Source: Takakia lepidozioides (Eukaryota > Plantae > Bryophyta). From it: a DNA stretch of 64,000 nucleotides. Made by a program: the position numbers and the translations under genes. The notes under the pieces were generated by a model, which was not told where the DNA came from, searched no databases, and saw only the letters and a list, made by a program, of their open reading frames with translations. Below, piece by piece: positions 37,785 through 62,145 of the stretch; within the stretch, counting starts at the first letter, position 1; every line of letters begins with the position of its first letter. Location of the stretch: positions 29,574,001 through 29,638,000 of the forward strand of contig CM060731.1 of the NCBI GenBank assembly GCA_030704615.1, given 5' to 3'.

Positions 37785-37853
37785 GTACAGTGTTCGGCAC
37801 CGCACATTGTTTCTGACCCCTCTCTTATATCCATTTGAATGTGCATCCTTGCA

Positions 37854-40800
37854 GGAGAAGATGCAAAGAGTAGAGGATGAGAACCCCTCAGTGCAGGAAA
37901 AGGAGATCATTGGTGATGTGGACGATGAGTTTTATGAAAGCAAAGCCGCGGAGATGCTGGGGGGTCAGAAGGTTAATTCGCAGCTTGTGGTGCAAAGTAT
38001 GCTTGCCCCGGGTGGGAGGTTGAAGATTCCCCTGTGTAGGTTGGTTTCCATGCCCGTCGTTCGTCCACCCCTCATCAAGGATATCCAGAAGCTGGAGGTA
38101 GAGTTTGTTCATGGGTATTTGGACGGATCTGCAGTTTTTTACGTTTCTACTAGGGATTCCAGAGGCAAGGAGCTCCTGGTGGATGAGTATCATGGACTCT
38201 TGGGATCCCATTTGGAGACAGGTGAACAAATCCTTCGAACTTCTTCTCTCCATGAAACCTTCGACGCAAGCATTCTCATGGAAGATGTTTCACATATGGG
38301 ATGGCAACCACCGGTTGCTTGCATGGATGGCTGTCATTGGGAGGCTGCACTCATAGGAGGAAGAGTGGCATTACTGTGTTCGAACAATGGTGCTGGATTG
38401 TGACGGGAACATGATGGGGCTTCTAACGGCAATGAATGATATGAATAGGTTGGTTTCTAATTCTACATGTTCCGGTTGTGGTTCCGTGGTTCTTTGCTTC
38501 CAATCCTCTGTTGTCGGTTCTTGAATTTCATTCTGACTTTCACACATCAATCTGCAGAGGGACGGAGACATCCCATGTGAAAACGAGTCTGGTTCACACT
38601 CTGTACAGGATACCAAGAATCGGCCAGATGCCATTGAGCAACTTCAAGACCATCCTTTCAACAGAGACATACAAGAAGTGCGAGAGCTCCAAGACATCAG
38701 AAACATGGTACTCGTTGACCCGTGAGGCTTTCATGGAGTATATGTACGCGGTGAGATACATCTTCCATCATCTGGCCTTTGGGTATTCCTGCTTCGAGAT
38801 CTTTGTTTCTATTTGTTTCCCTTGCCCTTGTGTTAATGCATCTGTCGTGCATTCTCTTGCAACAAGACTTTGCGGATGCAGGACAGCGTGGCAAACTAGA
38901 ATACTACAGCTCTACCCCTGAAGAGAGAAGGACAACAAAGGGGGTTGAGAGTCACATCAAACAAGTCTAGATGACCGCCACAAGAAAAAATATTATGAGT
39001 GTTTTTGTGAAGCAGTTGAGAATTGAAACCCATCCTTCAGACCATAGTTCCTTCAAGAGGTGAAAAACCATTTCAACAAGCCAGGAAAGCCCGAGATGGC
39101 CCAGGAGAAGTTGCACAGGTTATCTACCGCCGTTGTGTCTTCAGAACAGAAGGTGAAGTGGCTGCAAATATGGAACTCCGATCCCACTGTTAGGGACACC
39201 CACATGTTCCCCATGCCGGAGAAAGAGAAGAAGACCCAGCGTGTCATTCCAGTCAGTGACAATATGATGGACACATGGCTTCACAAGGACTTATTGGAGC
39301 TAGGTATGATGTCCTTTGCCGTGTCACTTTCTTTCCGCTTTTCTGTGGTTCTCTTTCCATGTTCCATGGGCTGTGATTGTTTTCTGGTTCATTCTTGCAT
39401 TGGAATTGTTTTGCAGTTGGAGGAAAGGGCCCAGTCTGTTCTACATACGCAGTTGGCTGACTATGGCATCACCATGACAACACCAAAGGTCTCCTTCCAA
39501 GCATACATGCGGAAATGGAGAGCCACAGTGTGACAATCTTGTTTCTTCAGGGAGGTTCAACAAGGAGGGTGGCATCAGTCGAACAAATGAGCTTGACCAG
39601 CAAGAGAAAGGAGAGGAAGCCTGGAAACGATGTCTTTACAGGTGCGAAATTGACTATGCTTCTTTGTTTTGCAAAGACACACTCTCCTCTATTTAACCTG
39701 ATTTGTGCTGGCTCATATGAGTGTGCGGTGTCACACACTCATTTGTTCTGTCCGTGTGTAGTAACACCAACGTGCACACCCTGGGCCCTTCAGGCTATTT
39801 TGTGTGCGGTGGTTACAGTGTGCGGTGCCGCATACTCTTCTTGGGGGTCTTCGTGACGTGGTAGAAAAGCTAGGAGATAATAGTTGCATTGCATAATGAG
39901 GTTGTCTCTGTGCCTGCAGGTACATAAAATATGTTCTCATGGCTGAGAACTTCTTGGACAAACATCCTGATTTCGTGGACCTGTGGCTTGTTCCTGCTGG
40001 CAACCAAACCATGTTTACTACAGGGATCTTGTAGGACTGGGCCCATACCATCTTTCTACCTATGGTTGGTATTTGGATTGCCCTGTTTCTGAGACCCCAG
40101 CGCAGGAGGTGTATTTGAGGAGAGAGAATGAGCGTGTAGCAACCACCGCCGCAGCTGCCGACCTCAAGATTCATGATAGAAATTTGAGGACACTTGCAGA
40201 GAAGGAGCCTCCCACTCAGGATACCCCGGGTAAAGGTAGAAAGGGAAAGGGAAACGATGTTGCTGTTGGTGGGAGGAAAGGAAGGGGTAAGGGGAAGGGA
40301 GCACAGGGGCAGGTAGGTGGGTAGGGAAGTGTTGCAGAAACTGGCCCTGCGGCGGATGTCTAGCCGACCAAAGAGACTCCACCGCATGGTAGGGGATCTG
40401 TGAGAAAGAAAAAGGGGGTGGTTGATCATGAGGACCCGTACCATGCAGTGGAGCATCCCACGAGGGTCATTCGCCCTACCGGGTTGGAGATGGCCAATGT
40501 CGGGTTCCTTGCCATGATGGAGTCCAGGAAATCTGATTACACCAGAGAGATTATGTGGGAGAGGATTATGGAGTTCCTCGGCACGGTGCGTGTTGTCTTT
40601 TGCTTCTTGTGTGTTGTGGGCATGGCTCGTTTCAATCCTCTTGAGCATTCGCTTGCATGCTTGTTTGCAGGCAAAAATGACCAAATCTTGGGTGAACGGG
40701 AAGGAGAAGCCATATGCAGCCGAACTCATCATCTTGGACATCCCTGATGGGTTGCCAGTCCCGGATGTCCCTCCAGCGGGTGCTTGTCAGGTTGGAATGA

Positions 40801-42100
40801 TTTTTATGAGCGCTACTGGCGGTGGATTTTCTCCTTTTGCAATTTCTTTCTGTCCGATGCAGGTGTTTTGGTGCTTATCCAGTCCACGACCTTTGCTATC
40901 GCCGTGTACTTGCCAGCTATTTGAAAGCCTCCGGTATGAGGGTCGTGAAGACATGGAATTGTGTGAACAACATGTACCTGACGAAGGGGGATCGTCCGGG
41001 AGAGATGGTAAATCTGCCTTCTTATTCCTCTTCTTGGTGGTTCTCACATGGAGTTGCATAAGTCGCTCAAATGAATATGGAGAGGCTTGGTTTTCAAGCT
41101 TCTTAGTTCCTTGTGGATGTCATGTTCGCAGACTCATCTGTTTGAAGCTGTTTGTCTCGTTCGAGTGCATCCACCTACGACTCCAGCCGTCATTAGGGAG
41201 TTCGCCATCACTCATGGGGGCAAGTTCATAGACGAGAGGACATATCCTCCCACGGATGACATGCACCACAACTACGTGGACAATAACGTGTGCTTGTGAA
41301 GGGGGAATGGGGTTCCTTGGAGAGAGGCCAGGGAGAGGAGCCCGGCTTTCATTCAAACGATTGTGGAGTGCTACACTACACCGATGCCAGAGTTTTGGAT
41401 TTGTCAATGGGCACAGGTTCGTCTCTTCATCCTTCACATTTGATTGGGTTTGTTTGAGCTTGCACTTTCAGCAATTCCCACCGTTCCAAATGAGTTTTCA
41501 ATGTCTGTTTCCTTCCTTCTATTCCATTGCAGGTGCTTCGTACCACGCTTGCAAGGCCAGTGCGTGACATCTCTTCGGGATTGAAGGGGATGCCGAAATT
41601 TACAAGAACCTCCTGATGGGTTTGGGTGGACAAACTTCTCAAGTCCTTCCGAAAGCCCTTCCCGGTGTTATTGATACAGGGGAGACGTCCGACAAGCCGA
41701 CTTTGCCTGTGAGTAAGTTCAACCTATGGATGCTTGCATTGTTGTTTCAATACCCAGAATCATTGTTCTTAAGGAAAAGTGTACATGGGAGACATCCTCT
41801 TCGTTGGACTTGTGCATTGCATCATTGTATTCAAAATGGAATTTTGTCGACTTGTGCATGAGTCCGTGTGCTTCCATTGAACCTCCAGGGCTATCACACC
41901 TTTTTGGACTTCTTTCAAGTCCTCCTCAGTCTTACATGCTGTCTATACGGAGGCACTCGCAACAAGCATGTCCGTTCATGGCACTCGTAGTCCAACCATC
42001 GACGGCCGTGGTAGAAGACGTGGTGTTGGGGCCGGAATCTTTGTGGATGACATAGCACATGAGGTCGATTCTGATTCTGATGGTTGTGACACTTGATATA
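37854..42100 (+). pseudogene. Copy B: near-complete multi-exon ParB/Srx + beta-class DNA methyltransferase fusion gene
   Basis: N-terminal IPLCRL..VRPP..FYVS..FHIWDGNHRLLAW (ParB/Srx GxHR). C-terminal ELIILDIPDG (40737), FIQTIVEC..VLDLSMGT|GASYHAC..LFGIEGD. About 9 exons with GT-AG introns; stops and frameshifts present. Confidence 0.82.
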
Positions 42101-42269
42101 AAGTTTTCTTTTACTTTTATTCGGGGCCAATTTTGAAATGGGATGGTTGTGTGTCCTTGTTGTCCTGTTTGCAAGGATGCGAATTCCTGGGAACAAACTA
42201 TTGTTGGAGATGGGGGTTGCATGGACTGCCCGGATTGTTCCTTCAATCTCTTTAGTGTTTTCCGGAGCT

Positions 42270-42829: not shown

Positions 42830-42969
42830 ACCTGCGATAATAGGTGCCACCCGCGGTAATAGGCCCAGCATGTTCGCTCCGACATGCTGACGTGGCGTGA
42901 GCCTATGCTGGGCTCACGGGTTCCTGGGCTCACATGCTCACGTCTCCAGGCTCACGGAATAGCACCCCC
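42830..42969. mobile_element. Terminus (putative TIR) of MULE copy B
   Basis: CCGCGGTAATAGGCCC..GCTGACGTGGCGTGAGCC..CCAGGCTCACGGAATAGCACCCC. Confidence 0.65.
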
Positions 42970-43292: not shown

Positions 43293-43508
43293 TGGGAATG
43301 ACCACGTCCTTTTATTATGTCGTCCAACTTGTTTCCGCGGTAAAGGGTGCTCTTCCGTGGGAATACACTCCACTTCTTCCTTGGCGTGTGGTGACACGAC
43401 CTTCAAGCGCGATGACGTGGAGTGAGCCCCGTGATGTGGCGTTGGCGGAAGGTGACGTGGCGTGAGCGCAGTTGCGCTCACGCGACCAGGCTCACGCCGA
43501 GGCATCCC
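43293..43508. mobile_element. MULE terminus, near-identical to 60058-60270
   Basis: ..GGTGACGTGGCGTGAGCGCAGTTGCGCTCACGCGACCAGGCTCACGCCGAGGCATCCC abuts a ParB exon. Confidence 0.65.
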
Positions 43509-45217
43509 TGCACATCCGTGAATGACTCCAGTGGCATCAGCCCTATCTTCTGGATATAGAATAGTGTGTGGCAGAGATTGGTCGTCACATGGGAGGTTTC
43601 ATTGGATCTGAAAAAACCTTCAACTCATAAGATGATTTCAAATTGTGGAAACGCAGACCGGAACGGGAACAATGTTGGTAACTTACTTGTTTATGTCGTG
43701 CATGGCTGTCAAGAGCTGCGTGACACGTCCTTTGTGGTCGAGTACCATGGAAACCACGCTCCAGTGCCATTCGATCTCGTCCGAATGCAAGCTTGAAATG
43801 TAATCCATCCAGGCAAGCAGTCTATGGTTCCCATCCCAGACAAAAAACATCTTTCCCATAAACGATTTTGTGGAGGCCTTTTTGGACAACTTGAACTCAA
43901 ACTCCCTGTTTATATCCTGCCAGCATGCATCCCAACTTTGCTCTATGTCCTCTGTTACAAGACACTCCTCTCCTTTCGTGTTCACAGTGGATACAAAGAA
44001 CACTGCAGATCCCTTGACATAGCCGTGAACAAACCGTTCTTCAACTTCGTGATGTCGTTCCTCAATGCGGGTCGAACCGCGGGCATGGAGATCATCCTGC
44101 ATAGTGGGATAACCAGGTTTCCACCGGGAACCTCCATCGACAGAATCACCTTCAATGAGTTCACTTTCTGCCCACCCATAACCTCCTCGGCCTTGTTTTC
44201 ATAGTGTCCCTCAAATGACTCTTCCTCACCATCACCTTCTGCCACTACCGCGTTGATGTCGACCTCCAAAGTGTATGTTTATGAAGGTGAAACGAAGCAG
44301 ATGCAACACTCGAATCAACCTTGCGTTGACGCGAGGCTGATTTTGATGCCTCTTCTGTTCACTCCCAGCATCCGAAGTCCCGTGCCATGAACCGCAAGGT
44401 AGGGAAAGTTGATTATTTGAAGCCCCCAAAAGAACCTTGCGTCAACGCAAAGCATTTAGTGGGTTCAATGGACTGTTCCGGTATGCATTTCAGACTAAGC
44501 TACATCCCCATCAATCAACTTTGCGTCAACGCAAGGTTGATCCATGGGAGCTCAATCTGTCACTCACAGGGATATTCATTCTCTGCAGAGGAAAAGAAAA
44601 AGGAAATCCGTGGGGGGAGATTGACGCAAGGTTGATGTCGAGCTCTCAGATTGGTGTTCAACAAACAAAAAAATAAAATGGAAAAGGAGATTGCAACCTA
44701 TGGTTTCTTCTTGGCACTTGATGATGCATCGGGAGCATTCATATTTTCCATGGCTGCCAAGTGGATACGGGAGGTGGGAATGAACAAAAAAGGCACATGA
44801 ATCAACCTCGCGTCAACGCAAGGTTGATTCGAGTGCAGCATCTGCACTCGTTTCATGCCCAGAACATACACTTTGGAGGTCGACATCAACCTTGCGTTGA
44901 CGCAAGGTTGATGTCGACCTCTCTGTTTAGCATGGAACAGACAAAAAAAAGAAAGGGAAAAAGAGGGTTGATAGCCACCTCCGGTTTCTTCTTTACACTT
45001 GATGATGCTCCTGAGGCATTCAACTTTTCCATGAGTTCTGGAGGCAGCATGCTTCCAAGGAGGTCCCGGTGGTGCGAAACAGCGGCAAACGGCAGTGTTT
45101 CCGCGTCTATCTCTCCTCCCTGCTCTCTCAAGACCCGGTTCTCTACTCGCAGCGCTTCCTCCTGAGCCCAGCTGACTTCCTCGTCCTCCCCCCCTTCTAT
45201 TGGAGGTTGCTCTTTGG
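43509..45217 (-). pseudogene. 5' part of a ParB-MTase gene (ParB exon), with an internal inversion
   Basis: GQKVNS..IPLCRMISMPAVRP..KMFFVWDGNHRLLAW..MHDINK|intron|ETSHVTTNLCHTL; duplicate of 60271-61935. Confidence 0.8.
44314..44921. repeat. Array of palindrome family 1, TCAACCTTGCGT-TG-ACGCAAGGTTGA (also 61095-61638; variant at 47606-47800)
   Basis: About six copies here; 44876-44921 has perfect 22-bp arms with a 2-nt loop. Confidence 0.9.
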
Positions 45218-47403
45218 TTGGAGGAAAACTGGAGGGACCAACTTTGGACATTGTTGTGGACCATTTCTTGACTTTGACTTCTCCAAACATTAGGAATCAG
45301 GTGAACGCTTTAAGAATGGGCTCTGGGAGCCGAGGTTATATGGACAATATTATGGATTTGAAGAAAAGGAGCATGTACGACTACATCCAAGACAGCATTT
45401 CCCCGGGACAAGGAGCTAGGAAAGTATTCCTGTTCAAAATGTCCACAAAATGTGAGGGCAGCGGAGTCAGCCTGGTTAAATATATGCAGAAGGGTGGCGA
45501 TCTTGGCAACTACTTCCTTATGTTCGATCACGTCAAAAGGGTTAAAGATTGGACCACAATGGCATGTCATGTTTACGACCCTGTGTACCAACGTGTCATG
45601 ACAATTGCAGTGTGTGACATGCAGCCAGAGTACACAGATTCACAGCAGCTCATGTGGGAAGCTCTCATTCGTGTTATGGCCTCCAATGGTCTCCCATCTC
45701 CCAATTTTGTTGGTTTCATGCCGACAGTGCTCAAGCTAACTTCAACGCTGTCCGCATTGTGTTCGGGACGGGAGATCCAAAAGTGCCAATGCCTGGAAGA
45801 GAACGTACGTGTCTTTTCCATTGGACACAATCCCTAGACAAACACACAAAGGCAGACATCAAGCCAGATATGCAGAGTATGCATCGTCAACTGTGCAAAC
45901 AATACAAAGATGCCAAAACTATGGGGGAAGCGAATACATTGTTCCAGACAATTCGTGCCTGGTGGTACTCATCTGGAGTGGCATCGGAGGACATCATGAG
46001 GGCACTGGAAGACTGGTTCGCATTTTGGCACTTCCGTTACCGACAGTGGGGAGCGGCCATGACAACGATGAGATTGTAGCAATGCCTAGTTGTAGCAATC
46101 CGGCAAAAATGGAAGAGATTTGTATGCGGCCACGGCCGATGACCTTATCCGTGCTCTGCAGCAGCAAACCAGATACAGGTCATTCTTGAGGGGTGGCCTT
46201 GGTGGCAAAGGCCTGGACAGGAGTGAGTTGATGTTGCGGGCAGCGAGAAGATCGGGGGATCCCAGCAAAATAGCGCGGGCAGTGAGCATATGTGCAGATG
46301 GCACCCCTCTTGTGGGAAGAGTTCCCCATTTGGAAGGCGAAGAGAGATTCGGGTCTTGCAAACGGATGTTGGACACCCCTCCCGGATCGGATGCAGATTC
46401 CCATAGGGCGGACACAGTCAACTTCTCGACGCCACGTGTTCCCTTGGATTAGAGATGGAATTGCGGAACATCCACAGGTGAGGGCCATTCTGCCCCAGAC
46501 CGGACCCCTGCATCAAGCACTTTCACTGCAATGGTTGAAGACCAGAACGTGGTGCCGCGTGTAATGGAGTCCATGTGCTTGGACGAGGTTTGGCATATAA
46601 AACGCACAAGTGCTGGATCGCGTGTGAAATGCGCAGCGATCAGGGCCACCAATCATGAAAAATGTACATCATTAATATCCAGAGGGAAAGAACGCACTGC
46701 AGCTCCTACATTCACTGGTTTGTTTCTCCCTTTCGGACAAGGAGAGGCAAAGAACCACAAGTTCTGGTTCTGCGTTGACGATTGTGGGAGATGTGTGCGT
46801 GGGACAGTGAGGCCCTTCGTGGTGAGGAAGCCTACTCCACCAACCGTGTGGCCTGTGAAGATGGGCACAGGTCTCACTTACCAAGAGATCGCAATGCTGG
46901 AAGAGGCGGGTTTCTCCCTAGCCAGACATTCCATTGCACGTGAAGGTGCTTCAAGTACAAGCGGTTCACGGGTACCTCCGCCTAATGCTCACTTGTGGCC
47001 AACCAGACGGAATGGGAAGCTGGTTCGACGATTCCCTCCAACCGCAGAACACTACGGCAAAATCGAGTCTGCGAGAATGCTTCACGCTCGTGTTGCGGGA
47101 ACAATGGAAGTGCATGATCCAAGGTATGGTCGGGTCTTCACCATGATCTCAACCGCATCTGCTTTGCAGGACAAGACGTACGACATCACTGTTTCCAATT
47201 TTCCAAATTGTACATGTCCTAATTTTGTTGGTATGCTTTCAAGTAGTTTGGGAAAGAGAGGGAAGTTCATACCGTGCGAACACCTTTACTTCGTCTTCTT
47301 GAGAAGGATGGTTTGTGATTCAAAGCGCGACTTCTTCATTCACCAAACCACTATGAGTTTCAACGAAGTCAACACACTTCTACAGCGGGATACAAGCCCA
47401 TAG
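45214..47403 (+). pseudogene. Mutator-like (MULE) DDE transposase with C-terminal SWIM zinc finger, decayed
   Basis: LMFDHVKR (D1), FMADSAQA (D2), RTCLFHW (CxxH), CTCPNF..PCEHLYF (SWIM). The E-containing segment is deleted relative to the 63-kb copy. Confidence 0.8.
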
Positions 47404-47867
47404 AAAGCATGCACTTGACATGAAGAAATTTGTGTTTTCCTTGACTACAACTTGTAATGGAATGACTGTTCAAGTCCAGTGTCTCTCAATGTATGTCGTC
47501 TAACATCTTTGCTATGCGTGGGTCAGTGCATTTGTCGCATTGGTTTGTCATTCTGATTTCATTTGCAAACACAAGAAACTACCTTCAGATAGACAGATGA
47601 TCAAATCAACCTCGTGGTAACACGAGGTTCACTTGAGGTTCTCCAAATCCCCCTTGTGTCGACACAAGGTTGATTTTAGTTCTAAGAAAACAACATCGTG
47701 TCAACACGAGGTTGATTTTTGTTCCAGGAAAACAACCTCGTGTTAACACAATGTTCATTTCAGTTCTAGGAAATGAAGCTCATGTTAACAGAAGGTTGAA
47801 CTCTAGGAAAGCCCGAAACCCTTCATCCGTTTCACCTTCATGTGGTAAAATCAGCAGTTGGGGGCTC

Positions 47868-48036
47868 CACGGTTATAGGCCCACCTTCTTTGTGGTGACG
47901 TGGCATGACCTGGACCAGGCTCACGTCACGTCAGCATCAGCGCCACGTCAACTGCGTGAGCGTAGGCTCACGCCACGTCATCGTTGTGTGAGCGTACGCT
48001 TACACGCTCACGCGCCAGGCTCACGCAATAGCGTCG
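47868..48036. mobile_element. MULE terminus downstream of the transposase
   Basis: CCACGGTTATAGGCCC..GGTGACGTGGC..CCAGGCTCACGCAATAGCGTCG. Confidence 0.65.
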
Positions 48037-48169
48037 TTGAACACTGTACAGAGTTCGAACTCATACCTTTTTCTGTGTTTACACGAAGTTTCAAATGTGC
48101 TTCAAAGTTTCACAAAGTTTCAATATGGCTTCCTATTACATCAAAACACATATCATAGTACAGGGGCAC

Positions 48170-48621
48170 AAACAGTGTGCGGCACCGCACACTGTTTCGT
48201 ACTGCCATTTCACCTTCATGGAAGTTTGAGGAACAGGGCATGGTTCACACTTCTCAACCCCCAAATGAAGAGAGGGACAAGAAACAGTATGCGGTGCCGC
48301 ACATTGTTTCTTGCTTTCATTTGTCTCTATTTGAAGCAAGAGAGACAACTGAATGGGTTCATTCCAAACAAAAAAAGAACACTTGACCGGGGTTTCAAAA
48401 ACTGTACCCCAAAGTGACTCTTCATTGCTTACAGGTTGATTGAAGCTTGACAGACAGAGTTGGGTGAATAAAATACAAAGGGGCTGAAATAGTGTGCGGT
48501 ACCGCACACTGTTTGAAGCTACTATTTCAAGCCTGCTTAAAACACCTGAAGATTCAAAGTTCCACCCAAAAGAGAGAGTTCTAGGGGGGCAGAAACAGTG
48601 TGCAGTGCCGCACACTGTTTC
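48170..48621. repeat. Array of palindrome family 2, AAACAGTGTGCGG-CA/TG-CCGCACACTGTTT (also in copy B introns at 37787 and 39720-39838)
   Basis: Four copies at 48170, 48281, 48489 and 48592. Confidence 0.9.
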
Positions 48622-48779: not shown

Positions 48780-49640
48780 TGCTTTCTTGTCCATGCCCTG
48801 CAGAAGCCCAGCAAGTCCAGTGGAAGACGTGGGAGGGTTGAGCTCAAACAAAATGTCCCCATCAAACTCTGCTGGCAATATTGAACCCGATGCACCCGAA
48901 GGGACTCCCAATCAACAAAACGCAGCTCGCTCTTGCACTCAGGCACCCCTGCGAGGGCTTTCGATTTCGGAATGACACTCGTTATCTCCTGCAATTCGTC
49001 AGCATTCAAGAATGGAGTCTGGACTGGCGCAGGTATCTCAGAAATATTCTCCAAAGACAAGTATGAAAGAGTCACGAATGTAGTGGATGTGCTCACCTCT
49101 TGTTTCACATGCACTGTGCCCTTCTGTTGCACGACCGATGTTGCAGTGCCAGGGGTAACCACTGATCCTGCTGATTGTCTTCTCTCTTTTCCAAGGACCC
49201 GATGTTTGCCTAGGAGGACTCTCCACTTCCTCCCACACTCGCCAACCAATGGTTTCTGCAAGTGCCCAGAATCCAAATTCCCATCCTCGTCATACACCTC
49301 TTTTTGAACAAGTAGAGAACCCAATTCCAGTGGGAACACTGTAACCAGCTCATCCTCATGAACAACTGCAAACCCATCCTTATCTGCAGTGCCAGTCAGT
49401 GGAAGACTACCTACATTGGAATGAAATCGAGCGAGTCTGTCTCCCTCCTTGAACATGTTTTCCTTGACTGAACCAAAGTTGCGATCCACAGAGGGTCCCC
49501 CGGTTCGCAAACTGATAACCCGTAATTTTCGAGAGGGGATCCACCTCAAACGAACTGAGGTGCATAAGGGTAGCACAGTCACAATGGCTGCGGGCGATGT
49601 ATGCAACGAAAGGATGACATGCACGGCGGAAGTATGCACC
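48780..49640 (-). pseudogene. Probable N-terminal exon of another transposase gene of the same MULE family
   Basis: 300-aa ORF ending (with a frameshift) VDWESLRVHRVQYLPAEFDGDILFELNP..LQGMDKK, followed by an intron-like region holding family-2 palindromes. Confidence 0.45.
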
Positions 49641-49969
49641 GAACTCCGTAGTCAACCACACTGACAGACACCAACTGGAAAAACTGACTTCGAAGACAAG
49701 AAGCCACAAGAAGCCGTATTGTGTTTGGATGAAAAGCAAACCATTGCACAGGATATGGAGCCATCCATTATGGAAAGACGGTGATGGCCCCACGAGTCCA
49801 ACAAACAGGAAACCCAGAATCAAATTTGTTTGTGCTGTGCCAGAAGATCATAGCACAAACACTGACACTTAGGGGGACACTCCGTAGGAAGGTGCGCAAC
49901 ACATTACGATTGCCGACACCAAGCTTTATACCAAAGGAAGAAGTTTTATCGGAGAAGGAACTCCCAATA

Positions 49970-50769: not shown

Positions 50770-51939
50770 ACTGTTCTACGATGCGATATACACTACAACA
50801 AAAGAAATAAATAAATAAAGTAAGTGTTTACAGATCAATAGCTTACACTAATCTACTTTCAGCATAAAGAAATGCTATGAAGAACTAAGAGAAAGAAAGC
50901 AAACTACTTGCGTGTAGCCTCTCCACGTTGTCCCAGTCGCTTGACCATCTTCTTCTTTGTTTCTCTACGAAACAAAAAAAAATGCTCTTCACATATCCTC
51001 CTCAGACTCGAATCGTATAGGTCTTAAAGGTACCCTCAAAGATTCATGACTACCCGTGTAGTCCACTATCCTCGCTCTGATGTAAACAATGAGTTGATCA
51101 ACTAACAGGAACACCATGGGTGTGAATACATATACAACGTTTGTCACATGGATAAGGAGAGCAGGACCACATGGGCCTTATCGCTAACTGTAATGAAGCT
51201 ATAATTACTGATGCAAACGGTGGCCAGCTACTATCTTGATTTAAGGAGCGGTGCACAACAAAGGCCTGATCTAGCGGCACCACAACATGGGTGTGTTAAT
51301 TGCAACAGACTGCGTTTGGATGGCTAAACTGAGAGAGCGAGAGAGCTGAACTCAGTTTGCCGTCAATAACCTGTGTTTCCAAACTTTATTAAACTTCGCA
51401 AATACATATGGCAAAGGCATCCTTACTAGGCCTTTCGTATATCTTCACCACACATATATATTCCAAGGTCAACTGATCTACATTGAAAGAAACAAATGAA
51501 AGACCTTTTCTTCCGTGGGTGTCGGGAAGTCGATGGCTGGAGTTAACTTGAATCACTTACACTACAGTGTGACGAATGAGCCTACAGACCTTAGCTTTCA
51601 GACCTTAGCATTCAAAGTAGAGAAAACCTTCTCAAGTGCGAGGATTGCGCACCGAAGGGGAAACGGTAGAATTTGGAGCACAGACTGTGAAGGCGGTGGA
51701 CTCTTGCCAACCGCACTCTTGACACACATCGAGTATCATAGCTAACACCTATTCGTTGCTGTAGCCGCATCACATCATACACTGCTCGAAGCCCAATCGG
51801 ATCTATTCGTGGTGGCTTTGAGGCCGGCGATCGATACGGAAAGGACGATGCAATGTCCGCGGGAGAGATTTCCGAAATTTGTCCAACGGAAGAGTTGTAA
51901 GTAGTACGAATGTGCTCATGCTGTCATCGGGGAAGTATC

Positions 51940-52629
51940 TCAGGAGATCTGGATCTGGCGGGTCTCAGCCTTAGGTTTGTTAAGTTTGGGGACGGTAACA
52001 GTAAGCACGCCGTTCTCTACTTCTGCTGTCACTGCGTCCGCATTTGCGTTCTCTGGCAGGCGGAACCGGCGCAGAAAGCTACCCCGGGACCGCTCAACAC
52101 GGTGCCATTTGTCTCCCTTCTGCACCTCCTCCTCCTTCCTCTCTCCACTGATTTCCAGTGTACGTCCGTCCACCATTTGCACTTTGATCTCCTCCCTCTT
52201 CAGACCTGATCCATCACAATGTGCACAACCTTTAAGAAACTTCAATGACTTCCTCTCTTTCAGAATTCGAGAATAATTTTAGTTCACTTCGACGGAACAA
52301 GCAGTTGAATTGGATATACCGACTGTACTCCTCCATTCACCCCAGTGATGACCAACATTTGCCAAATTCTGGAGACATTCTTTACTTTCATCTGAAGCAA
52401 AGGACAGGAAGAGAGCATCTGAACAAAAATTAGTCAAGTTACCGGGAAGATCAGCTTTGAAGATTTGTGCCTCGGGAGTCTCACGCCAATCGATCTGCGC
52501 ACTCGCCACAGCCTTTGCATTCCGAGCCATCTCACGGGATGGCTCACTCTCGAAGACATCCCAGACGGTAGGAATGAGGACGGGATCATAAACACTGTTG
52601 TCGTTCCCAAAGAACAATGAAAGAGCCAT
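51940..52629 (-). CDS. HSP17: Cytosolic class I small heat shock protein (~17 kDa, 150 aa); exons 52629-52443 and 52205-51940
   Basis: [18 protein letters not shown]|[55 protein letters not shown] phase-1 intron; spliced CDS is 453 nt and open. Confidence 0.95.
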
Positions 52630-53349
52630 CGATGCTGTCCGAGGTCTTCTTCAGTAAGACTCTGACACTCAGAATGCGGGGACAGAAGACGATCAGTCCA
52701 CAGCTACTGCACGATCACAGGTGAAGAAGTAGGCAAAGTCCGCCGAGAAATTCTCACAAAGATTTCTAGAGAAGATGGAATGAACTGAACACGGGATAGA
52801 GCAATTGTGAAATGAGGGTCACAGGGTCTTCTTGTTTTATAGAGACGTCAAAATGCTGTCGCGTACGTCGGTCGGAGAACGAGAAGCTTCCGGAAAGCAC
52901 CCGACGAGACGACCCCTTCGTTGAGGGCCCCTCCCGTAGTGTTCGTCCGTCTGGCATTGCCTCATCCATATTGGAGTTATCATCCAAGATCTTCGAGGCC
53001 TCGTGATCTTTCTGGTGGATGAACGTTCTGTTATGTTCCAGAAGAGTCGGGAGCGCAGAGTTGCAGAGTGTGCTTCGTGCTGGTCGTGTGGCGATAGCGA
53101 CGGCAGAGGTCTGGAGAGATCTAGAGGAAACTCGAGGTTGAGAGAGAGGTCAGGAAGGAGCAGGAAACCGACACAAAAGTAGTCTATATAAGAGGCATTC
53201 TACGTTGCGTTTACAATCTGCACTCCCAGGAATTCATCATCGTGCTGCTGCACGCATCGAGCTCAGAGTTCTCTCGCTAACTGATTTCAAGTGATTCTGC
53301 TTTGACCTCTCTACAAACTAGCCCTGAACTATGCACCAACCGCAGTCAA
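52630..53349. promoter_or_regulatory. Bidirectional heat-shock promoter
   Basis: Perfect three-unit HSE AGAAGCTTCCGGAAA (52882-52896); more nGAAnnTTCn at ~52746 and ~53021; TATA boxes at 52835-52842 (-) and 53185-53191 (+). Confidence 0.8.
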
Positions 53350-53481: not shown

Positions 53482-54931
53482 AATACGAGTACTTAAGCCC
53501 GTATTGAAAACTCATGACACAGTCATACTTTTGGTGTTGAACATCTTCCTACGATCATTTTGTGACACATACTTCAACAAAATCTGTGCACCTATAATAC
53601 CATCAACTTCCGTCTTAATTGTTGCGATGTTTCACGATCAGTAGTGATCGTGACCCTACTGGTCATTACACTTAGCCTACACTCACGACCTATCAATCCT
53701 TGCTTTCCTTATGAACATTTTGTCACTGCCACTACTCCAGTGACCGCCTTTCACTCCACTTCTGGTCATCTTTCGGTACATATACACTCATTGTGCTCCT
53801 GCCTTTCACTGAACAGGAACATTCTCCACTTGACTAACATTTCATAGAGACTTGATAGAAAGATCACCTTCGAGGCCCGAGAATCCTGCCAAAAACCCCC
53901 CAAAGAACTCTCCTTCCCTTTGGAACTTAAGGACGACCTGAATAATAAACAAATGCCACCACCTAGTTTCTGAGTGGACCTAAATACAAGCCTTGAACTA
54001 TCTCGAAAGCTATTTTGGATGCGCTAAGTGGCGCTTCCATTTTTACGATCCGTGATTTCATCCTTCATTCTCAACGGCAGTGATTCAATTCGTTCCAACG
54101 CCTCAGATTTCCCCATATCATGTTTGGTGAGGGAATTGCTGACATGCCTGATGTGAGGTTGGCCAACTGTTGCTGTCGTCTCCTACATTCTTCAGCAGTG
54201 TAAATTTCTGAGTCGTTCTGTCAACCCTGTCGACTTGTATGTGCAGTTGCAACCGGGTGCCAATCTCTTCCTCCCTCACACCGACTATTTTCGCTGGATC
54301 GATCTTCAGACGCCAACGCTGATCTGCAGTCGAGCTAAATAATGCAGCAGATGGCGCCAAAAGCGATCCCAGCCTCCTCTCAATGATTCCTCGGAAATGT
54401 GTCTCTCTCATCACCACTCTTCCATCTATGAAAGTTCGTAGTTCGACCCCTCATGCACCTTTGGAAGGCTGAATTCGTGAGTCAAACAAACCCTGCTGCC
54501 CTGCAGTTGAGTCTTAGCAGAACCGATTCAAATTACTACTATAAACATATAACTGCCTCATAAATGCAGCTACAGTCGAGTAATGAAAAACAATTGTGAA
54601 GTAGTCAGAAAATGTCGGATTGGTCTGTGAGAACCACCACGGTGCAGCTGAGAAGCCAACGATCGAAACACGACCTCCTAAGAGCTTGCGGCACATACTG
54701 TACAGAGTCTACCAAAAAAGGAGATTGCGAAGATCATCCTTGAAGGTCGCGAGGTGCGAGTTGCTCCATCCTATGCGCATTGCCAAGGGTGATGCTCCAA
54801 CTCAAGCTGCACAGGCTCCGCCCTCCTCCTGTTCCAGTTCGATGTTAAGAAACAGATGGTGGCGCGGGAGCCCTTGTGGCGAAGAGACACCCTAATTTAC
54901 GCTTCCTTCGGGAGGCGGAGGCGTCTATATA

Positions 54932-56307
54932 CCGTAGCCTCTTATACGGTTGGGCAGAAAATAATTATTTTAAGCATTTGTCCAAAAAAATATAAAGTAG
55001 TTCCACCATTTCTCGTACCAGTTCTGGTCTGTCTTAGAGAGGACTTCGTTTTGTCAATGCTCCAGTTCAATGAGCAAGCCCTCTTTCTACTGCAACCTTA
55101 TATTTAGATTTAAGCTCACCACTCGAAGTAAACCAATGATAGAGAGTACCTCTACTCAATTTATCAAAGGGACTTCCAACGACTCCGGGTTTTTTGTGAG
55201 CTGTTCGCAAATACTGCAAAGCATCAGCCAACGTGTGGTTTCTTTTCACTGCAGCAGATATCAATGACCAAAGTTATGGTGTAAACCAATTCATGTATGT
55301 CCCCCTTGATTTGACCTGTGTACATAGAAGTACCTTTAAAATCAATACCAAGTTCAAGATGATGCACAAAATGATATTATAATATATATGGATAAATATA
55401 AAGAGAATATAACTGACCTTCTTCCGTGTAGATGAAGATACATCGTTGATTCACAACAACCAATGTCTATTCTGTCATTCTGCTCGATCAATGAAACAGT
55501 ACATACGTTTTGCTTACGAGGTCTCTCCACTGGCCGCAGTCTGCTTGATTTAGGCACATCGGTTTTGCTCGCAAGATCTTGGATAAATCTTTCTTTGTCT
55601 TTGGTAACCTGACATCTATGCCCTAGAGTTAGTTTAAAATTGAGACGATAAAATGATTGTAATGTAATAGAGCTTAGAATATGTGGCAGGATTGCTTCCT
55701 GTGCTGGAAGTTCATCTATTTCTAGATAAGGTTCTACAAACCTCGTATCAAAATCCCTTGCAAGCTTTTCCAAAGTCAACACCACAATACTTTCTAGAGT
55801 GGAAAAATCACTTAGTTTTGCCATCAAACTTCCATGTATACATTGTGGTCTCTGCTTGCAGCCTTGCAATGTTGTCTGCCTTTTCAATGCTAAAGCTGCT
55901 CTACTCAGTTCTCCTCTATCTCAAAGTAACTTGTTTGCCTTTCAATCTACCCCCAGTAAACAAGTGGATCGATGTTGTCAGCTTCATTGACGGCTTGATC
56001 CACGTAGCGCCTTGTGTCAAATAATGTAACGGTACCCATTATCACCTCAGAATAGCTAGCTCAGTGCTGCCTAATTTATTTCAAATCAGATAAATTATTT
56101 AAGACTAGTTGGTAGGTTTAATTCATTAATTACTCACTGACTCTTTGCCCAATCAATACATATTTGGCTCATGACCTGTCTAAATTATTATAAACTTCAT
56201 AACTGAATTGCCCAAATAAGATATATTAATGTGATATTGCCCAACCGTTCAAAGAAAAAGAAAAAATTATTGGGCAAATTTTTGCCCAACCGTATAAGAG
56301 GCTACGG
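54932..56307. mobile_element. Non-autonomous TIR element with TA target duplication (Tc1/mariner-pogo type)
   Basis: Perfect 25-bp TIR CCGTAGCCTCTTATACGGTTGGGCA (54932-54956 and 56283-56307) flanked by TA; internal GCCCAA repeats; unidentified minus-strand ORF pieces. Confidence 0.85.
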
Positions 56308-56332
56308 TATATATATATATATATATATATAT
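56308..56332. repeat. (TA)n microsatellite at the TIR junction
   Basis: About 12 TA units. Confidence 0.95.
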
Positions 56333-56499: not shown

Positions 56500-57290
56500 C
56501 TTGCTGTCTTTGGCTTGTAATCACAGATCCAAAGGGAATGTCGGTGCCGACATTCACTTCTATGTCTGTGTCCTTCCAAAGCTAGAGATTGCATTCACCT
56601 GGATTAGGAACTTAGGGTGTGTTTGCAGTGTCCTTGAATGATATTTTGTGAATGGCGTTGACCACATTCACATCCAGAGCTGTTGTGAGCTCCCGAGATT
56701 TATTGTACGTTTTGTATATTGAATGTCCTACTAGAAACTGTGTTGCCTCTGGTGAGAAATCGTTAGGCTTTGTAAGCAGTGTAATCATAGATCCAAAGTG
56801 AATGTCGGTGCCGACATTCACTTCTATATCTGTGTCCTTCCAAAGCTAGAGATTGCATTCACCTGGATTAGGAACTTAGGGTGTGTTTGCAGTGTCCTTG
56901 AATGGAATTTTGTGAATGTCGTTGACGACATTCACATCCAGAGCTGTTGTGAGGTCCTGAGATTTAATGTACGTTTTGTATGTTCCATTGATTTTTTAGT
57001 GAGCGTTCCTCACTCTAGTTTTCTGAATGTCGTTGCCGACATTCACTTTCCTTGCAATGTTGTTGCCTCTTGTGAGAAATTGTTAGGCTCTGTTAGCAGT
57101 GTAATCACAGATCCAACGTGAATGTCGTTGCCGACATTCACTTCTATGTCTGTGTCCTTCCAAAGCTAGAGATTGCATTCACCTGGATTAGGAACTTAGG
57201 GTGTGTTTGCACTGTCCTTGAATGGAATTTTGTGAATGTCGTTGACGACATTCACATCCAGAGCTGTTGTGAGCTCCTGAGAGCTCCTTA
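56500..57290. repeat. Tandem repeats carrying palindrome family 3, GTGAATGTCG[GT]-TG-[CA]CGACATTCAC, upstream (intron) of MTase copy C
   Basis: Seven palindromes at ~56536, 56648, 56798, 56911, 57024, 57118 and 57231, within ~260-320 bp higher-order duplications. Confidence 0.9.
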
Positions 57291-57396
57291 GAGCTGTTCT
57301 GAGCTCCATTTCCTTCCTCGTTTTTTTCATTCTATGCTACTGGCATCTTACTCACTTCGCGCTTTGGTGGGTTGGGTTTTGTCTCTTGTTTCACAG

Positions 57397-59636
57397 GTAC
57401 ACGAAATATGTGCTTATGGATGGAAATCACATCAGCGGTATTCCAGACTATCTTGACATGTGGTCGGACCCTGCAAACGATCCAACCATGTGCACTGCAG
57501 GGATATTGAAGGACTGGAGTCCTTCTCACTTCAGAGACTGTGGTTGGTACCTAGACTGCCCACCTGAGCACACGACCTTTCAAGAGCAGCACATGAAATA
57601 TTTGAACAATAATGCTGAGATGCTGGCTCCTCTGGACGACGAGGAGTACCAAAGAAACATAACAACATTGGCTGCCAAGGACCCTGATGCTCAGGAAACG
57701 ACGCAGAGGGGCAAGAAGGCGGGGCGCAAACCAAAAGACAAGGCTCCTGATGTCATAGCCATGTCACCAGCAAAGCCAAAGGACAAAGATAAGTCCAAGG
57801 ACAAGGAGAAGGAAAAGGACAAGGGGAAGGAGAAAGAAAAAGAGAGGGAGAGGAAAATGAGAGTGAGAAGGACTTCACTGCTGGAAGGTATACCCGCACA
57901 ATTCAGTGCGTGTTCGATGCCAGGCCACACCCTTCCCGTGCTGATTCGGCAAGAGAGATTAAGATTGTCAATGAGGGTTGGCTGGCGATGATGTAGAGTC
58001 AAAAGAGATGATACACTGGGGTGCCTTCGCCTACCTGGGACAACATGATCTCATTCCTTAATTTGGTGAGAATTTGATTTTCTTTCCTTTGCATCTGTAA
58101 GTGTCATTTGCAGTATTAAAGTTTGGTTCTTTGAAAACATTCTTGTCTTCGTTCTAAAATTGAACATGTCTATTGCAGGTGAGCACTGGTCCCACCTCCG
58201 TGTGCGCTGTGCAGAAAACATTTGCGGCTGACATGGTCATTTCTCGACATCCCGGACGGCCAGGCTGTGCCAGAAGTTCTTCCGAAGGGCAAGACGCCAA
58301 GCTGGAACAAATTCGATGACAACCATTGGAGTTGGGTGTTCAGGTTCTGCAATAATTTCCTCTCTGATGCAGGGACACTTCTGCTTTTTCAGTCATGTGA
58401 CAAAGATAGTCGTCGGGCATTGGCATCATACCTGAAGTCCTCTGGGTTTGAAGTTTTGCGCACATGGAATTGTGTGAACATCCTCTACCTTGTGAAAGGG
58501 GGTTGTCCTGGTCAGCTGGTATGCCATCTCCCTTCTGCATGTGCTTTCATGCTGCGTTTCAATGTTCTCTGTAGCTCCACTATAGAAGAATCTGTAATGA
58601 TAGACACCGATCAGCACAAATTCGTGACAAAACAGATTGTTGTATGCCAGTTTTTTGAATAGCCAATGTACAAACTTCCACTATAGTTTGTGTTTACCAC
58701 CCTAACCTGCAGTCTTTGGCAGACGAGGATGTTCGAGGCGATCTGCCTGCGGAGGATTTGCACCTCAAATACATCATCCTCCGTCCGCAGCTTTGAGATT
58801 TCTGACTAGGGTTGTTTTGTCAACCCCCCGTATGAGCCGCATGTCGATGACATTTGTACAACTTCATGCAGTCCAGTCAGACTCTCAAGAGACCAGATGG
58901 CACTCTCTGGAGAGGTGCAAAGGAAAAAACCCCAGCGTTCATGCAGATACTGCTGGAGTCATGCAGCCACTATTTTGCACGGGTGGTCGATCTTTCTGTG
59001 TCCACAGGTTCGTTCTCTCCCTTTCGAATTGATTTTCTTTCACCAGTTTCATCTTCTTAAATTCCCCCCCCCCCCCCCAACAACCTGTTCATGCCCTCCT
59101 GTCTGGTGCAGGAGCAACTTACCATGCATGCAAGGCAGGCGGAAGAAGCCTTTTTGGCATGGAGGGTGATTCTGACCTTTACAAGACAGTGGTCATCCCC
59201 CTTTTGTCTCGCTCCACTTCAGGCACACTGACTGAGAGGATTCAAATCCGAAATGATGACGATCCCAAAGACAAGCAGGTCTAGAACGACTTTTCATGTG
59301 AGTAAGTCCTAAACCCACTTTGGGAGCCATACTCAATTTCTCGGACATCAAATTTACAGTAATAACTTTTTTCGGGCTGTGACTTGCAGGAAAGGCAACG
59401 ATTGATCTTCAGGAGATACCCCCATTTGTGGCGGGTCTGTTTTTGACAGCCTCCTTTCCAGTTTTCTGCTTTCTGTGTATGCCGAAGCAATGGCACTTCA
59501 TGCGGCTGAGTCTCTATCCCCTGACTTTTTATTGCCTGGACGCAGGTGTAGCCAGCGTAGATCCGGAGTTCTTAAATACTTAGACTTAGATGCAGAGGAC
59601 GCGGGGATACATTGTACTGACTCTGAGTCAGACTGA
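57397..59636 (+). pseudogene. Copy C: 3' half of the ParB-MTase gene
   Basis: YTKYVLM..GWYLDCP; FLDIPDG..WVFRFCNNFLSDAG; WRGAKEKTPAFMQILLESCS..RVVDLSVST|GATYHACKAG..FGMEGD. Confidence 0.82.
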
Positions 59637-60057
59637 ACTTTGTTCTTTTAATGTTCTGTTTCATCCTCTTCGGAAAACATTGAATCCCCTTACTCCACTG
59701 TAGTTCTTCTGGCAGAAAATAAAAAATAAAAAATCAAAGAATCCACTTTCATTAAAATGGCAATATGTATGAATCCATCCCACAAACCCCACTCACTCTT
59801 GTCATATCCATTGTGCATTCATCTACTGTGTATTCATGCGTGCTCCATTCATGAATGTTTTCCTTTATTCAACATCCATTGTACATTCATCCACTGTACT
59901 CTGTAATCCACCCCACAAACCTACCACACTCATGTCATATACATTGTGCATTCATCTCATCCCACATTCATCCATCTACTTTCATTTTTCACACTCATCC
60001 ATCTGTTTATCATCCACTCTACATTCATCCATCCTTCATTCATCTGTTGCTTTCAGG

Positions 60058-60270
60058 TGGGAATGACCACGTCCTTTTATTATGTCGTCCAGCTTGTTTC
60101 CGCGGAGGGTGATCTTCCGTGGGAATACACTCCACTTCTTCCTTGGCGTGTGGTGACACGACCTTCAAGCGCGATGACGTGGAGTGAGCCCCGTGATGTG
60201 GCGTTGGCCGAAGGTGACGTGGCGTGAGCGCAGTTGCACTCACGCGACCAGGCTCACGCCGAGGCATCCC
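60058..60270. mobile_element. Terminus of MULE copy C
   Basis: Same cassette, ending CCAGGCTCACGCCGAGGCATCCC, downstream of the MTase stop. Confidence 0.65.
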
Positions 60271-62145
60271 TGCACATCTGTGAATGACTCCAGTGGCATC
60301 AGCCCTATCTTCTGGATATGGAATAGTGTGTGGCAGAGATTGGTCGTCACATGGGAGGTTTCATTGGACCTGGAAAAACCTTCGACTCATAAGATGATTT
60401 CAAATTGTGGAAACACAGACCGGAACGGGAACAATGTTGGTAACTTACTTGTTTATGTCGTGCATGGCTGTCAAGAGCTGCGTGACACGTCCTTTGTGGT
60501 CGAGTACCATGGAAACCACGCTCCAGTGCCATTCGATCTCGTCCGAATGCAAGCTTGAAATGTAATCCATCCAGGCAAGCAGTCTATGGTTCCCATCCCA
60601 GACAAAAAACATTTTTTCCATAAACGCTTTTGTGGAGGCCTTTTTGGACAACTTGAACTCGAACTCCCTGTTTACATCCTGCCAACATGCATCCCAACTT
60701 TGCTCTATGTCCTCTGTTACAAGACACTCCTCTCCTTTCGTGTTCACAGTGGATACATAGAACACTGCAGATCCCTTGACATAGCCGTGAACAAAACCGT
60801 TCTTCAACTTCGTGATGTCGTTCCTCAATGCGGGTCGAACCGCGGGCATGGAGATCATCCTGCATAGTGGGATAACCAGGTTTCCGCCGGGAACCTCCAT
60901 CGACAGAATCACCTTCAAGGAGTTCACTTTCTGCCCACCCATAACCTCCTCGGCCTTGTTTTCATAGTGTCCCTCAAATGACTCTTCCTCACCATCACCT
61001 TCTGCCACTGCCGCATCTCCCCCCACGGATTTCCTTTTTCTTTTCCTCTACAGAGAATGAATATCCCTGTGAGTGACAGATTGAGCTCCCATGGATCAAC
61101 CTTGCGTTGACGCAAAGTTGATTGATGGGGTGTAGCTTAGTCTGAAATGCATACCGGAACAGTCCATTGAACCCACTAAATGCTTTGCGTGGACGCAAGG
61201 TTCTTTTGGGGGCTTCAAATAATCAACTTTCCCTACCTTGCGGTTCATGGCACGAGACTTCGGATGCTGGGAGTGAACAAAAGAGGCATCAAAATCAGCC
61301 TCGCGTCAACGCAAGGTTGATTCGAGTGCTGCATCTGCTTCGTTTCACCTTCATAAACATATACTTTGGAGGTCGACATCAACCTTGCATTGACGCAAGG
61401 TTGATGTCGAGCTCTCAGATTGGTGTTCAACAAACAAAAAAACCAAATGGAAAAGGAGATTGCAACCTATGGTTTCTTCTTGGCACTTGATGATGCATCG
61501 GGAGCATTCATATTTTCCATGGCTGCCAAGCGGATACGGGAGGAACAAAAAAGTGGATTGGCAGCAGGGAGTCGCCGCACCGAATGTTGATGGAGGTCAA
61601 CATCAAGCTTGCGTTGACGCAAGGTTGATGTTGACCTCTCTGTTTAGCATGGAACAGACAAAAAAAAGAAAGGGAAATAGAGGGTTGATAGCCACCTCCG
61701 GTTTCTTCTTTACACTTGATGATGCTCATGAGGCATTCAACTTTTCCATGAGGTCTGGAGGCAGCATGCTTCCAAGGAGGTCCCGGTGGTGCGAAACAGC
61801 GGCAAACGACAGCGTTTCCGCGTCCATCTCTCCTCCCTGCTCTCCCAAGACCTGGTTCTCTACTCGCAGCGCTTCCTCCCGAGCCCAGCTGACTTCCTCG
61901 TCCTCCCCCCCTTCTATTGGAGGTTGCTCTTTGGTCGCCTCCGGGATCACTTCAAGACCTTCCTCTCCAAACTGTGGTTGCAGAATCGGGTTTTGCCCTT
62001 CGTCCTCATCTCCGACGGAGGTTTCTTCTCCCATTCTAAGTTCCCGTCTCGCCTTCCTCATCCTCTCCTTAGCGCGTGCCCTTTGCTTGTTTGATGTGAA
62101 ATAAAGTGTTCTTCGACGCTTTCTTCTCCCTCGGGATGGGGTCAC
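60271..62145 (-). pseudogene. 5' exons of a ParB-MTase gene (basic/acidic leader and ParB exon), interrupted by copy C
   Basis: ORF 61726-62145 and ORF 60445-61026 with FVWDGNHRLLAW; the next exon is cut at 60271. Confidence 0.8.

Follow-up and report, generated by a model that had tools for sequence, protein, structure and literature searches.

Decayed Mutator-like transposons in the bryophyte Takakia lepidozioides carry 24-bp palindromes, most of them in predicted introns of an accessory gene whose product has a ParB-type domain. The palindromes lie in a 64,000-nucleotide stretch of assembly GCA_030704615.1 (contig CM060731.1, positions 29,574,001 to 29,638,000; hereafter the window). Which protein do they serve? 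The explanation we favour, with a probability of roughly 0.6, is that the 24-mers are candidate sites for dimeric binding by the element's own ParB-fold protein. The CG pairs would be contacts shared by all families and the arms a family address, while the effect would come about by occupancy and not by methyl transfer, most likely as self-activation and possibly as self-repression. A sequence-only reading of the same DNA had proposed cognate sites for a ParB-methylase and a co-evolving recognition code. The sites do behave like protein-binding sites tied to a ParB-fold gene, as judged from their 24-bp conservation, from a plan and position kept in 18 of 27 lineages, and from the ParB fold itself; the co-evolution and the active methylase found no support.

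Site plan and its spread across lineages

The 28 copies in the window fall into the three families that the sequence-only reading had described: two groups of five for family 1 (F1), four copies of an F1 variant, and seven each for F2 and F3 (Table 1). The sites consist of an 8-bp arm, CG, N4, CG and the inverted 8-bp arm, 24 bp in total. The common core described earlier is shared but is better written CG-N4-CG, and the F1 variant departs from it, since its four copies keep the F1 arms and all have TG-N4-CA, hence no CpG. A 2-nt loop had also been described; two central nucleotides are indeed unpaired, but the next pair, mostly complementary, has exceptions. Copies within a cluster are about 100 bp apart, as had been noted (median 108.5 bp over 20 gaps, range 42-224).

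The TG-N4-CA core of the variant at 47607-47756 amounts to a symmetric change that places a methyl group where that of 5-methylcytosine (5mC) would be. This core could stem from one ancestral event, and it hints that the binder may tolerate a methylated CG.

Conservation has a sharp edge. Half-site identity between copies of F1, F2 and F3 is 0.86-1.0 at the CG and 0.76-0.96 in the arms, and it drops to background directly beyond the 24-mer. At 31-60 bp from the centre, identity between copies is 0.25-0.33 for these families and 0.61 for the tandem variant.

The plan also emerges from a scan that is blind to family (8-bp arms with at most one mismatch, a core of CG, TG or CA with at least one CG, a 4-nt spacer, and 30 shuffles for comparison). 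In the window this found 17 sites against a shuffle mean of 0.37 (maximum 3). Spacers of 2, 3 and 5 gave no sites and a spacer of 6 gave two. Sixteen of the 17 sites lie within ParB or transposase pieces, and none was found across 49.7-56.3 kb. The remaining one, at 7527-7550, is an isolated palindrome that fits the CG-N4-CG plan outside the ParB genes. Like an isolated perfect 20-mer palindrome at 35226-35245, also outside these genes, it is unexplained or due to chance.

Where in the genes do the sites lie? Exons and introns were predicted from GT/AG and reading frame only. The five F1 sites at 61 kb fall in two predicted introns 5' of the ParB exon (61047-60449), in a chain of exons whose 342 codons include one stop, and the F2 site at 37787 precedes an exon homologous to this ParB exon. 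The F2 sites at 39.7-39.8 kb and the F3 sites precede exons that are homologous to each other (16 of 33 amino acids identical), though the arms of the two families share none of their eight letters. In a second organism, a further F1 site occurs about 1.7 kb deeper in the ParB gene. The sequence-only reading had placed the sites in introns or spacers; most are in predicted ParB-gene introns, and the F1 variant lies downstream of the SWIM gene. A coding role for the sites was rejected, as the five F1 copies occupy all three frames and lie outside exons. At 61.5 kb, a 56-nt stretch considered as an exon was also discarded, being a duplicated exon end that bears a stop.

Outside the window, relatives came from one metagenome scan, of which the best 80 of 124 were kept as loci and grouped into 48 clusters at 90%. 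Intact CG-N4-CG palindromes number 17 in these loci compared with 0.3 in shuffled sequence; a spacer of 2 gives 6 against 0.2, and spacers of 3, 5 and 6 give 1, 0 and 1. When CpG decay is allowed for, there are 31 sites against 1.2 expected at 300-2000 bp upstream of the ParB domain and 8 against 0.6 at 2-3 kb downstream of it. Among clusters with at least 700 bp of upstream DNA, 18 of 27 have an upstream site, against 0.65 in shuffles and 1-2 of 27 with other spacers; pooling all cluster members raises this to 20 of 27. Near the gene there are 33 sites in 38.9 kb, compared with 6 in 115.6 kb of far flank. The arms differ by lineage, and symmetry detected on the inner six pairs extends to 10-12 bp, reaching background by about 15. 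In an AT-rich clade the core is mostly TG or CA, a decay such as would be expected of methylated CpG. Viral contigs contained neither a protein relative nor the F1 pattern.

Two other palindromes were seen among these loci. A minority of relatives have CG-N2-CG palindromes, for example L008 (L008:8-200), which also has a site with a spacer of 4. In AT-rich loci, another palindrome recurs that lacks a CG core and has a single central nucleotide; how far it lies from the ParB gene varies (L030:7940, L032:6815 and 11605, L051-L054, L071:3108, L074:783 and L077:4263).

The ParB-fold protein and what may bind the sites

The ParB exon has 568 relatives at 50% clustering, and the named relatives are from Riccia and Adiantum. 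Structure modelling shows that this N-terminal exon has a ParB/Srx fold. The predicted confidence (pLDDT) of the model is 91.7, and all eight structural matches with Z of at least 5 are ParB/Srx members, led by KorB (Z 7.8, rmsd 2.6, 90 residues aligned), PadC (7.7) and SerK (7.1); all have Z below 8, and the best Foldseek E is 0.013. The motif DGNHR is conserved in the family and the GxxR motif of the fold is present. Pfam gave no ParB and no methylase hit on the window exons, and sequence searches against PDB returned nothing meaningful. The exon's closest neighbours in the ESM Atlas are clusters of fungal DUF3723 (0.96, 47% of members), which suggests from language-model features that DUF3723 is ParB-like; at a recognition value of 1932, below the tool's own bar, this is a lead only. 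The helical region that follows had no Atlas match at 0.9 or above.

A helix-turn-helix after the N-terminal domain is plausible from the models. In realigned Foldseek hits, the 430-aa model of the Riccia relative can be aligned with ParB and Noc chains for 159-181 residues, which takes it into their DNA-binding domain. The best of these alignments covers 177 residues (Z 6.9, rmsd 8.5) and concerns the relative's protein, not that of the window.

How would such a protein use the palindromes? A dimer would grip the two half-sites via a ParB-type helical DNA-binding domain, touching in every family the invariant CG pairs and owing its family specificity to the arms. Less firmly, loading might be followed by nucleotide-gated spreading, and the protein might mark the copies of its own family for expression or transposition, as in VANC-like anti-silencing. 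Such marking would work by occupancy and recruitment and not by methyl transfer, because the methylase-like domain lacks the aromatic residue of DPPY, though a motif resembling an S-adenosylmethionine (SAM) site is kept. The same anatomy would allow another outcome, namely KorB-like self-repression. New copies of the sites would arise by local duplication inside introns.

An extended version of this idea is tentative and we think it is probably too strong. Here, a ParB-derived clamp joined to a pseudo-methylase, widespread in seed-free land plants, would read an address in two parts: an invariant CG-N4-CG core that senses whether the element is methylated, and 8-bp arms serving as a barcode of the family, so that re-activation by each family would be confined to its own copies. 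If true, this would be an independently evolved counterpart of VANC, derived from bacterial partition, and a naturally diversified library of proteins and sites.

Do arms and proteins form a co-evolving code, as the sequence-only reading held? From the sequences, the arms are shown to be family-specific; co-evolution with ParB is not shown. On a ParB tree with 47 rows, from which one cluster was left out for its length and to which two copies from the window were added, the arms resemble each other inside two clades. The ten closest pairs (ParB identity at least 75%; pairs not independent) have an identity of 0.84 in the inner arms and 0.30-0.36 in the flanks. Over 30 lineages, in which a few single sites may be chance hits, arm identity does not follow ParB identity (Mantel rho 0.06, p 0.20). 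The recognition helix, as predicted, differs between families, but its residues have no simple match in the arms, and the code is thus not borne out. Nor is compensatory evolution established. Among 16 sites chosen by hand, two-sided changes occur in 9 of 11 pairs and the CG pairs are invariant, but this count is circular because symmetry guided the choice, and symmetry could persist by template switching, which can restore it, as well as by selection.

The lack of correlation between arms and proteins weighs against binding by the cognate ParB-fold protein, and so do several other points. The F1 and F2 ParBs are sisters, yet only 3 of 8 arm letters are shared; L011 and L012 differ in their arms although their predicted recognition helices are almost identical; L029 has arms like those of L010 and a distant protein. 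At the cut-offs used, 9 of the 27 clusters have no upstream site. Every copy in the window is broken, the F1 variant is found past the transposase gene and close to an element end, and the site is 24 bp long, unlike the 16-bp parS. The match to the DNA-binding domain is middling (Z below 8, rmsd above 8), and a wide structure search with the 430-aa model listed generic helical bundles and no ParB or Noc; the Foldseek results, too, were dominated by generic helices. Finally, the glutamates of the GE-RR and ENLQR motifs are needed for CTP hydrolysis, according to passages of PMC8494293, and these motifs read GNHR and HDIN in the protein family of Takakia. CTP-driven loading, another element of the earlier proposal, is therefore not supported; CTP binding without hydrolysis, as in PadC, may be possible.

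Could another protein of the element be the binder? If the transposase or the SWIM protein bound them, the palindromes might act like internal enhancers of transposition or self-activation. The genes for transposase and ParB occur together in a divergent arrangement, so that linkage alone cannot separate the binders, and the F1 variant array is 280-430 bp from a putative end. In passages of one preprint, the AtMu1 transposase alone activates cognate copies (bioRxiv 10.64898/2026.08.24.746577). However, the same passages place the peaks of that transposase at terminal inverted repeats, whereas most Takakia sites are in ParB-gene introns, kilobases from the ends, and the ends carry a shared motif of their own. 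Moreover, red-algal arrays are described as adjoining a ParB gene in an unrelated transposase superfamily (bioRxiv 10.1101/2025.02.11.637652, in part). Binding by the transposase or SWIM protein is thus improbable, if the best of the alternatives.

Slightly less probable again is that the protein binds the sites as an active N4-cytosine or N6-adenine methylase, with the CG pairs or nearby bases as substrate and a mark that blocks host silencing by 5mC. Beta-class methylases have the catalytic consensus (D/N/S)PP(Y/F/W). Relatives match the C-terminal part of PF01555 (N6_N4_Mtase) with E of 4e-3 to 9e-6, and a full-length relative joins ParB to a C-terminal domain of this type (E 5e-5), all under the curated cut-off; the window exons alone gave no match. 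In motif IV the D/N and the P are kept, as is a SAM-site-like motif, and an aromatic residue is found in a fern relative (P0069) and, as W, in L055. By contrast, the three window copies read DIPD (twice) and GIPD (once), with a non-aromatic D at the fourth position, and most relatives listed have E, G, R, S or T there. The active methylase of the earlier proposal is not borne out, as the DPPY aromatic is missing in the window copies. In favour of this alternative, plants use a beta-class N4-methylcytosine (4mC) enzyme at CG (Marchantia DN4MT1), and an Ectocarpus protein is predicted to make 4mC or N6-methyladenine (PMC12477816).

The sites might also be neutral by-products, either micro-MITEs (miniature inverted-repeat transposable elements) or template-switch palindromes spread by local duplication. 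Tandem and segmental duplication accounts for much of the copy number, one site has 22-bp arms, and rearrangements break at sites. However, a neutral process would not fix CG-N4-CG, the 24-bp length and the location of the site while the arms vary, as is the case in 18 of 27 lineages. Sites are also near-absent from the far flanks, and they show no flanking direct repeats of consistent length, so that the micro-MITE alternative named in the sequence-only reading is not borne out by them. This explanation is largely refuted and very unlikely.

A role as RNA hairpins in pre-mRNA, for splicing control or autoregulation, is about as unlikely. The sites are in predicted introns, some loops are GNRA-like, and core mismatches lean towards the G-U type (24 against 13, copies not being independent). 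Against this, arm mismatches have no such bias (13 of G-U type, 16 of A-C type), the spacers occur in both orientations (GCAC 7, GTGC 6), arm sequence is kept among the copies of a family beyond what pairing requires, and Rfam gave no match over 33-64 kb. That the elements captured binding sites of host transcription factors is equally doubtful: there is a likeness between some arms and what we take to be NAC or auxin-response-factor half-sites (TTGCGT occurs within F1, TGTCGG within F3 and TGTCTC in one outside clade), but one factor would not allow the complete difference between F2 and F3 arms at equivalent positions, and the spacing differs from the dimer spacings that we presume for these factors.

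Host elements and other features of the window

Broken plant DNA transposons, Mutator-like and nested in one another, occupy the right half of the window. Their layout, visible on the second organism's contig and in L047, L049, L060 and L067, is a transposase-like gene with SWIM and a divergent multi-exon accessory gene. The SWIM zinc finger scores above cut-off (E 6.7e-5), the transposase piece has acidic motifs and a CxxH as read by eye, and Pfam gave no MULE hit on the frameshifted transposase halves. The assignment to Mutator, which should be taken as provisional, rests on SWIM, the by-eye motifs, related G-rich ends and one 11-bp duplication.

The putative ends are related and G-rich, and the window contains no intact element with both ends. 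A subterminal motif at these ends (8 matches against 0 expected, in four families) differs from the 24-mer and is a candidate transposase-binding site; it is absent from all 80 outside loci. Summed contig depth over the element pieces is 1e4-2e5, compared with 170-460 over 50.1-54.4 kb. The pieces are thus repeats far above the neighbouring DNA, although such depth is no copy number. None of the RNA data listed matched 43.3-48.7 kb.

Many site copies are local duplicates and not all are independent. The two F1 clusters sit in two copies of a single family that are 97% identical, one of which has an inversion inside it; most of the F3 array comes from a two-site unit repeated three times, with one further site, and the F1 variant is a 42-bp tandem. 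The inverted segment is 44252-44621, with one break inside a further site, and in relatives positions 44241 and 44622 adjoin each other on opposite strands. An 11-bp word on the forward strand at 37785-37795, inside an F2 arm, recurs on the reverse strand at 48039-48049 (2 matches against 0.02 expected) and is likely a target-site duplication. Each copy of the word adjoins a putative element end, and the two ends belong to different elements in opposite orientation. Because the same 11-mer flanks two different element ends, the F2 site at 37787 and those at 48.2-48.6 kb are probably parts of one intron split by rearrangement. The duplication suggests transposition via two unrelated ends, inverting about 10 kb. 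Two rearrangements break at palindromes, namely this one and the inversion of 44252-44621.

Table 1. Palindromic sites and element pieces, in window coordinates
Feature	Position	Strand	Remarks
F1 sites, five	61097, 61180, 61296, 61380, 61604 (span 61097-61627)		24 bp each; predicted introns 61695-61267 and 61236-61048
F1 sites, five, second family copy	44316, 44432, 44516, 44803, 44887 (span 44316-44910)		97% identity to other copy
F1 variant, four	47607..47756		42-bp period; downstream of SWIM gene; second organism's contig also spans region
F2 site	37787..37810		just upstream of ParB exon acceptor; exon from 37855
F2 sites, two	39718..39838 (starts 39718, 39815)		predicted intron 39642-39919 of ParB-methylase gene
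F2 sites, four	48172..48618 (starts 48172, 48284, 48489, 48595)		likely displaced remainder of intron holding 37787 site; 11-bp duplication
F3 sites, seven	56534..57255		upstream of acceptor of exon homologous to exon after 39.7-kb F2 sites
F1-type ParB gene, 5' part	60271..62202	-	acidic exon, 30-nt exon, ParB/Srx-fold exon 61047-60449 (modelled); the end of another element truncates the following exon at 60271
F1-type ParB gene piece, second rearranged copy	43509..45296	-	
F2-type gene: ParB, helical domain, methylase-like	37855..41700 (end approximate)	+	multi-exon; stops, frameshifts
F3-type gene, 3' half, methylase-like	57397..59300 (end approximate)	+	contigs from a run guessed to be RNA cover part of it; F3 ParB exon absent from window
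Fourth paralogue, methylase-like 3' part	35897..36950 (end approximate)	+	no CG-N4-CG site nearby
Mutator-like transposase piece with SWIM zinc finger	45216..47403	+	frameshifted; about 2 kb deleted at 45216
Second transposase piece	63214..64000	-	66% DNA identity to 45424-46067
N-terminal transposase piece, other copy, truncated	48780..49651	-	match to L047 upstream of transposase core
Putative element end, non-palindromic subterminal motif	37743..37784		like ends 42889-42969, 43454-43508, 47900-48037, 60216-60270
11-bp word, likely target-site duplication	37785..37795	+	second copy 48039-48049 (-)

Other features of the window surround these elements. A low-copy host gene resembling a small heat-shock protein by eye lies at 51300-52800 (-), and its intron 52204-52440 is spliced in two runs guessed to be RNA. 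A short repeat of very high depth at 54601-54652, similar to 21880-21962, has loose ends on both sides in DNA runs and in runs guessed to be RNA. A 35-bp inverted-repeat pair (54926-54960 and 56279-56313, 97%) encloses a 1.4-kb segment that ends at a (TA)n run, possibly a MITE-like element. On the left are a LINE-like reverse transcriptase open reading frame (ORF) with a weak chromodomain match (2026-7078, -; E 5e-4), a Gypsy-like retrotransposon piece with zinc-knuckle, protease and reverse-transcriptase-like ORFs (12739-16827, +), and a four-copy tandem array with a period of about 190 bp (32498-33421).

Comparison with known systems

Is such a system known already? Self-recognition by a ParB protein is in print for red-algal Plavaka elements, where it is still hypothetical. 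A literature search, which missed most subscription papers, found no description of a ParB-site system in land plants; only the algal papers and a review were relevant. The review (PMC4738411) lists other ParB-linked methylases, none with this layout in its passages. A fixed CG-N4-CG plan across lineages with lineage-specific arms was not found described.

The Plavaka accessory genes PAG2 and PAG3 of Bostrychia moritziana include one for a ParB-homologous protein with tandem inverted-repeat arrays beside the gene; passages of the preprint also contain the self-binding hypothesis, a comparison with VANDAL, and homologues in Mutator elements of Chondrus (bioRxiv 10.1101/2025.02.11.637652). Takakia thus resembles Bostrychia in having a transposon-borne ParB homologue with repeats near its gene, and the hypothesis is the same. 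As described, however, the Bostrychia elements are of EnSpm type, with ParB joined to a 2OG-oxygenase and the methylase in a separate, SET-fused gene, whereas in Takakia ParB is fused to a degenerate methylase in Mutator-like elements of a land plant and the sites have a CG-N4-CG core and are dispersed in introns. The comparison is by description and not by the letters of the algal repeats, and the core may be common to both.

Closer in domain content is Sola1-1_Ec32 of Ectocarpus, in which a ParB-like and an N4/N6 methylase domain occur in one protein, encoded opposite the transposase and proposed to bind and modify its own element (PMC12477816, in part). The fusion and the opposite transcription are as in Takakia. 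By contrast, this is a Sola element of a brown alga, and neither passages of the paper nor a term search of five supplements yielded target palindromes; those passages also say nothing on the state of the catalytic motif. Algal ParB accessory genes have therefore been proposed as self-binders, with no target site defined in the passages of those accounts. In the Takakia elements and the outside loci the candidate site has a strict plan and comes in dozens of natural versions, each paired with a protein variant of its own, so that the proposal can be tested by cross-binding.

How do the sites compare with those of bacteria? As in ParB/parS, Noc/NBS and KorB, there is a ParB/Srx N-terminal domain, a probable helical DNA-binding domain and palindromic sites in multiple copies. 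Bacterial parS is a 16-bp site whose specificity is described as conserved across bacteria, whereas the Takakia sites are split, 24 bp long and subject to rapid turnover of the arms. The specificity of ParB and Noc can be switched by four residues, according to passages of PMC7383237. The Takakia protein differs further from bacterial ParB in its replaced CTPase glutamate motifs and its methylase-like fusion, and no ParA-like partner was noted among the 17 window ORFs scanned. If the favoured explanation is true, a bacterial partition module has been re-used in eukaryotic chromatin, and the families would provide a set of orthogonal DNA-binding pairs.

The nearest functional parallel is VANDAL/VANC, in which an accessory protein binds family-specific, non-palindromic motifs of 8-9 nt in introns and other non-coding parts that have been multiplied by tandem duplication (PMC5735166, in part). 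Takakia shares with it the Mutator-like elements and the family-specific intron motifs multiplied by duplication. Binding and anti-silencing have been shown for VANC and its 8-9-mers, whereas for the Takakia system, with palindromic 24-mers and a ParB fold, both are predictions. If they are true, sequence-specific self-recognition of transposons would have arisen a second time in plants, in addition to VANC/TnpA.

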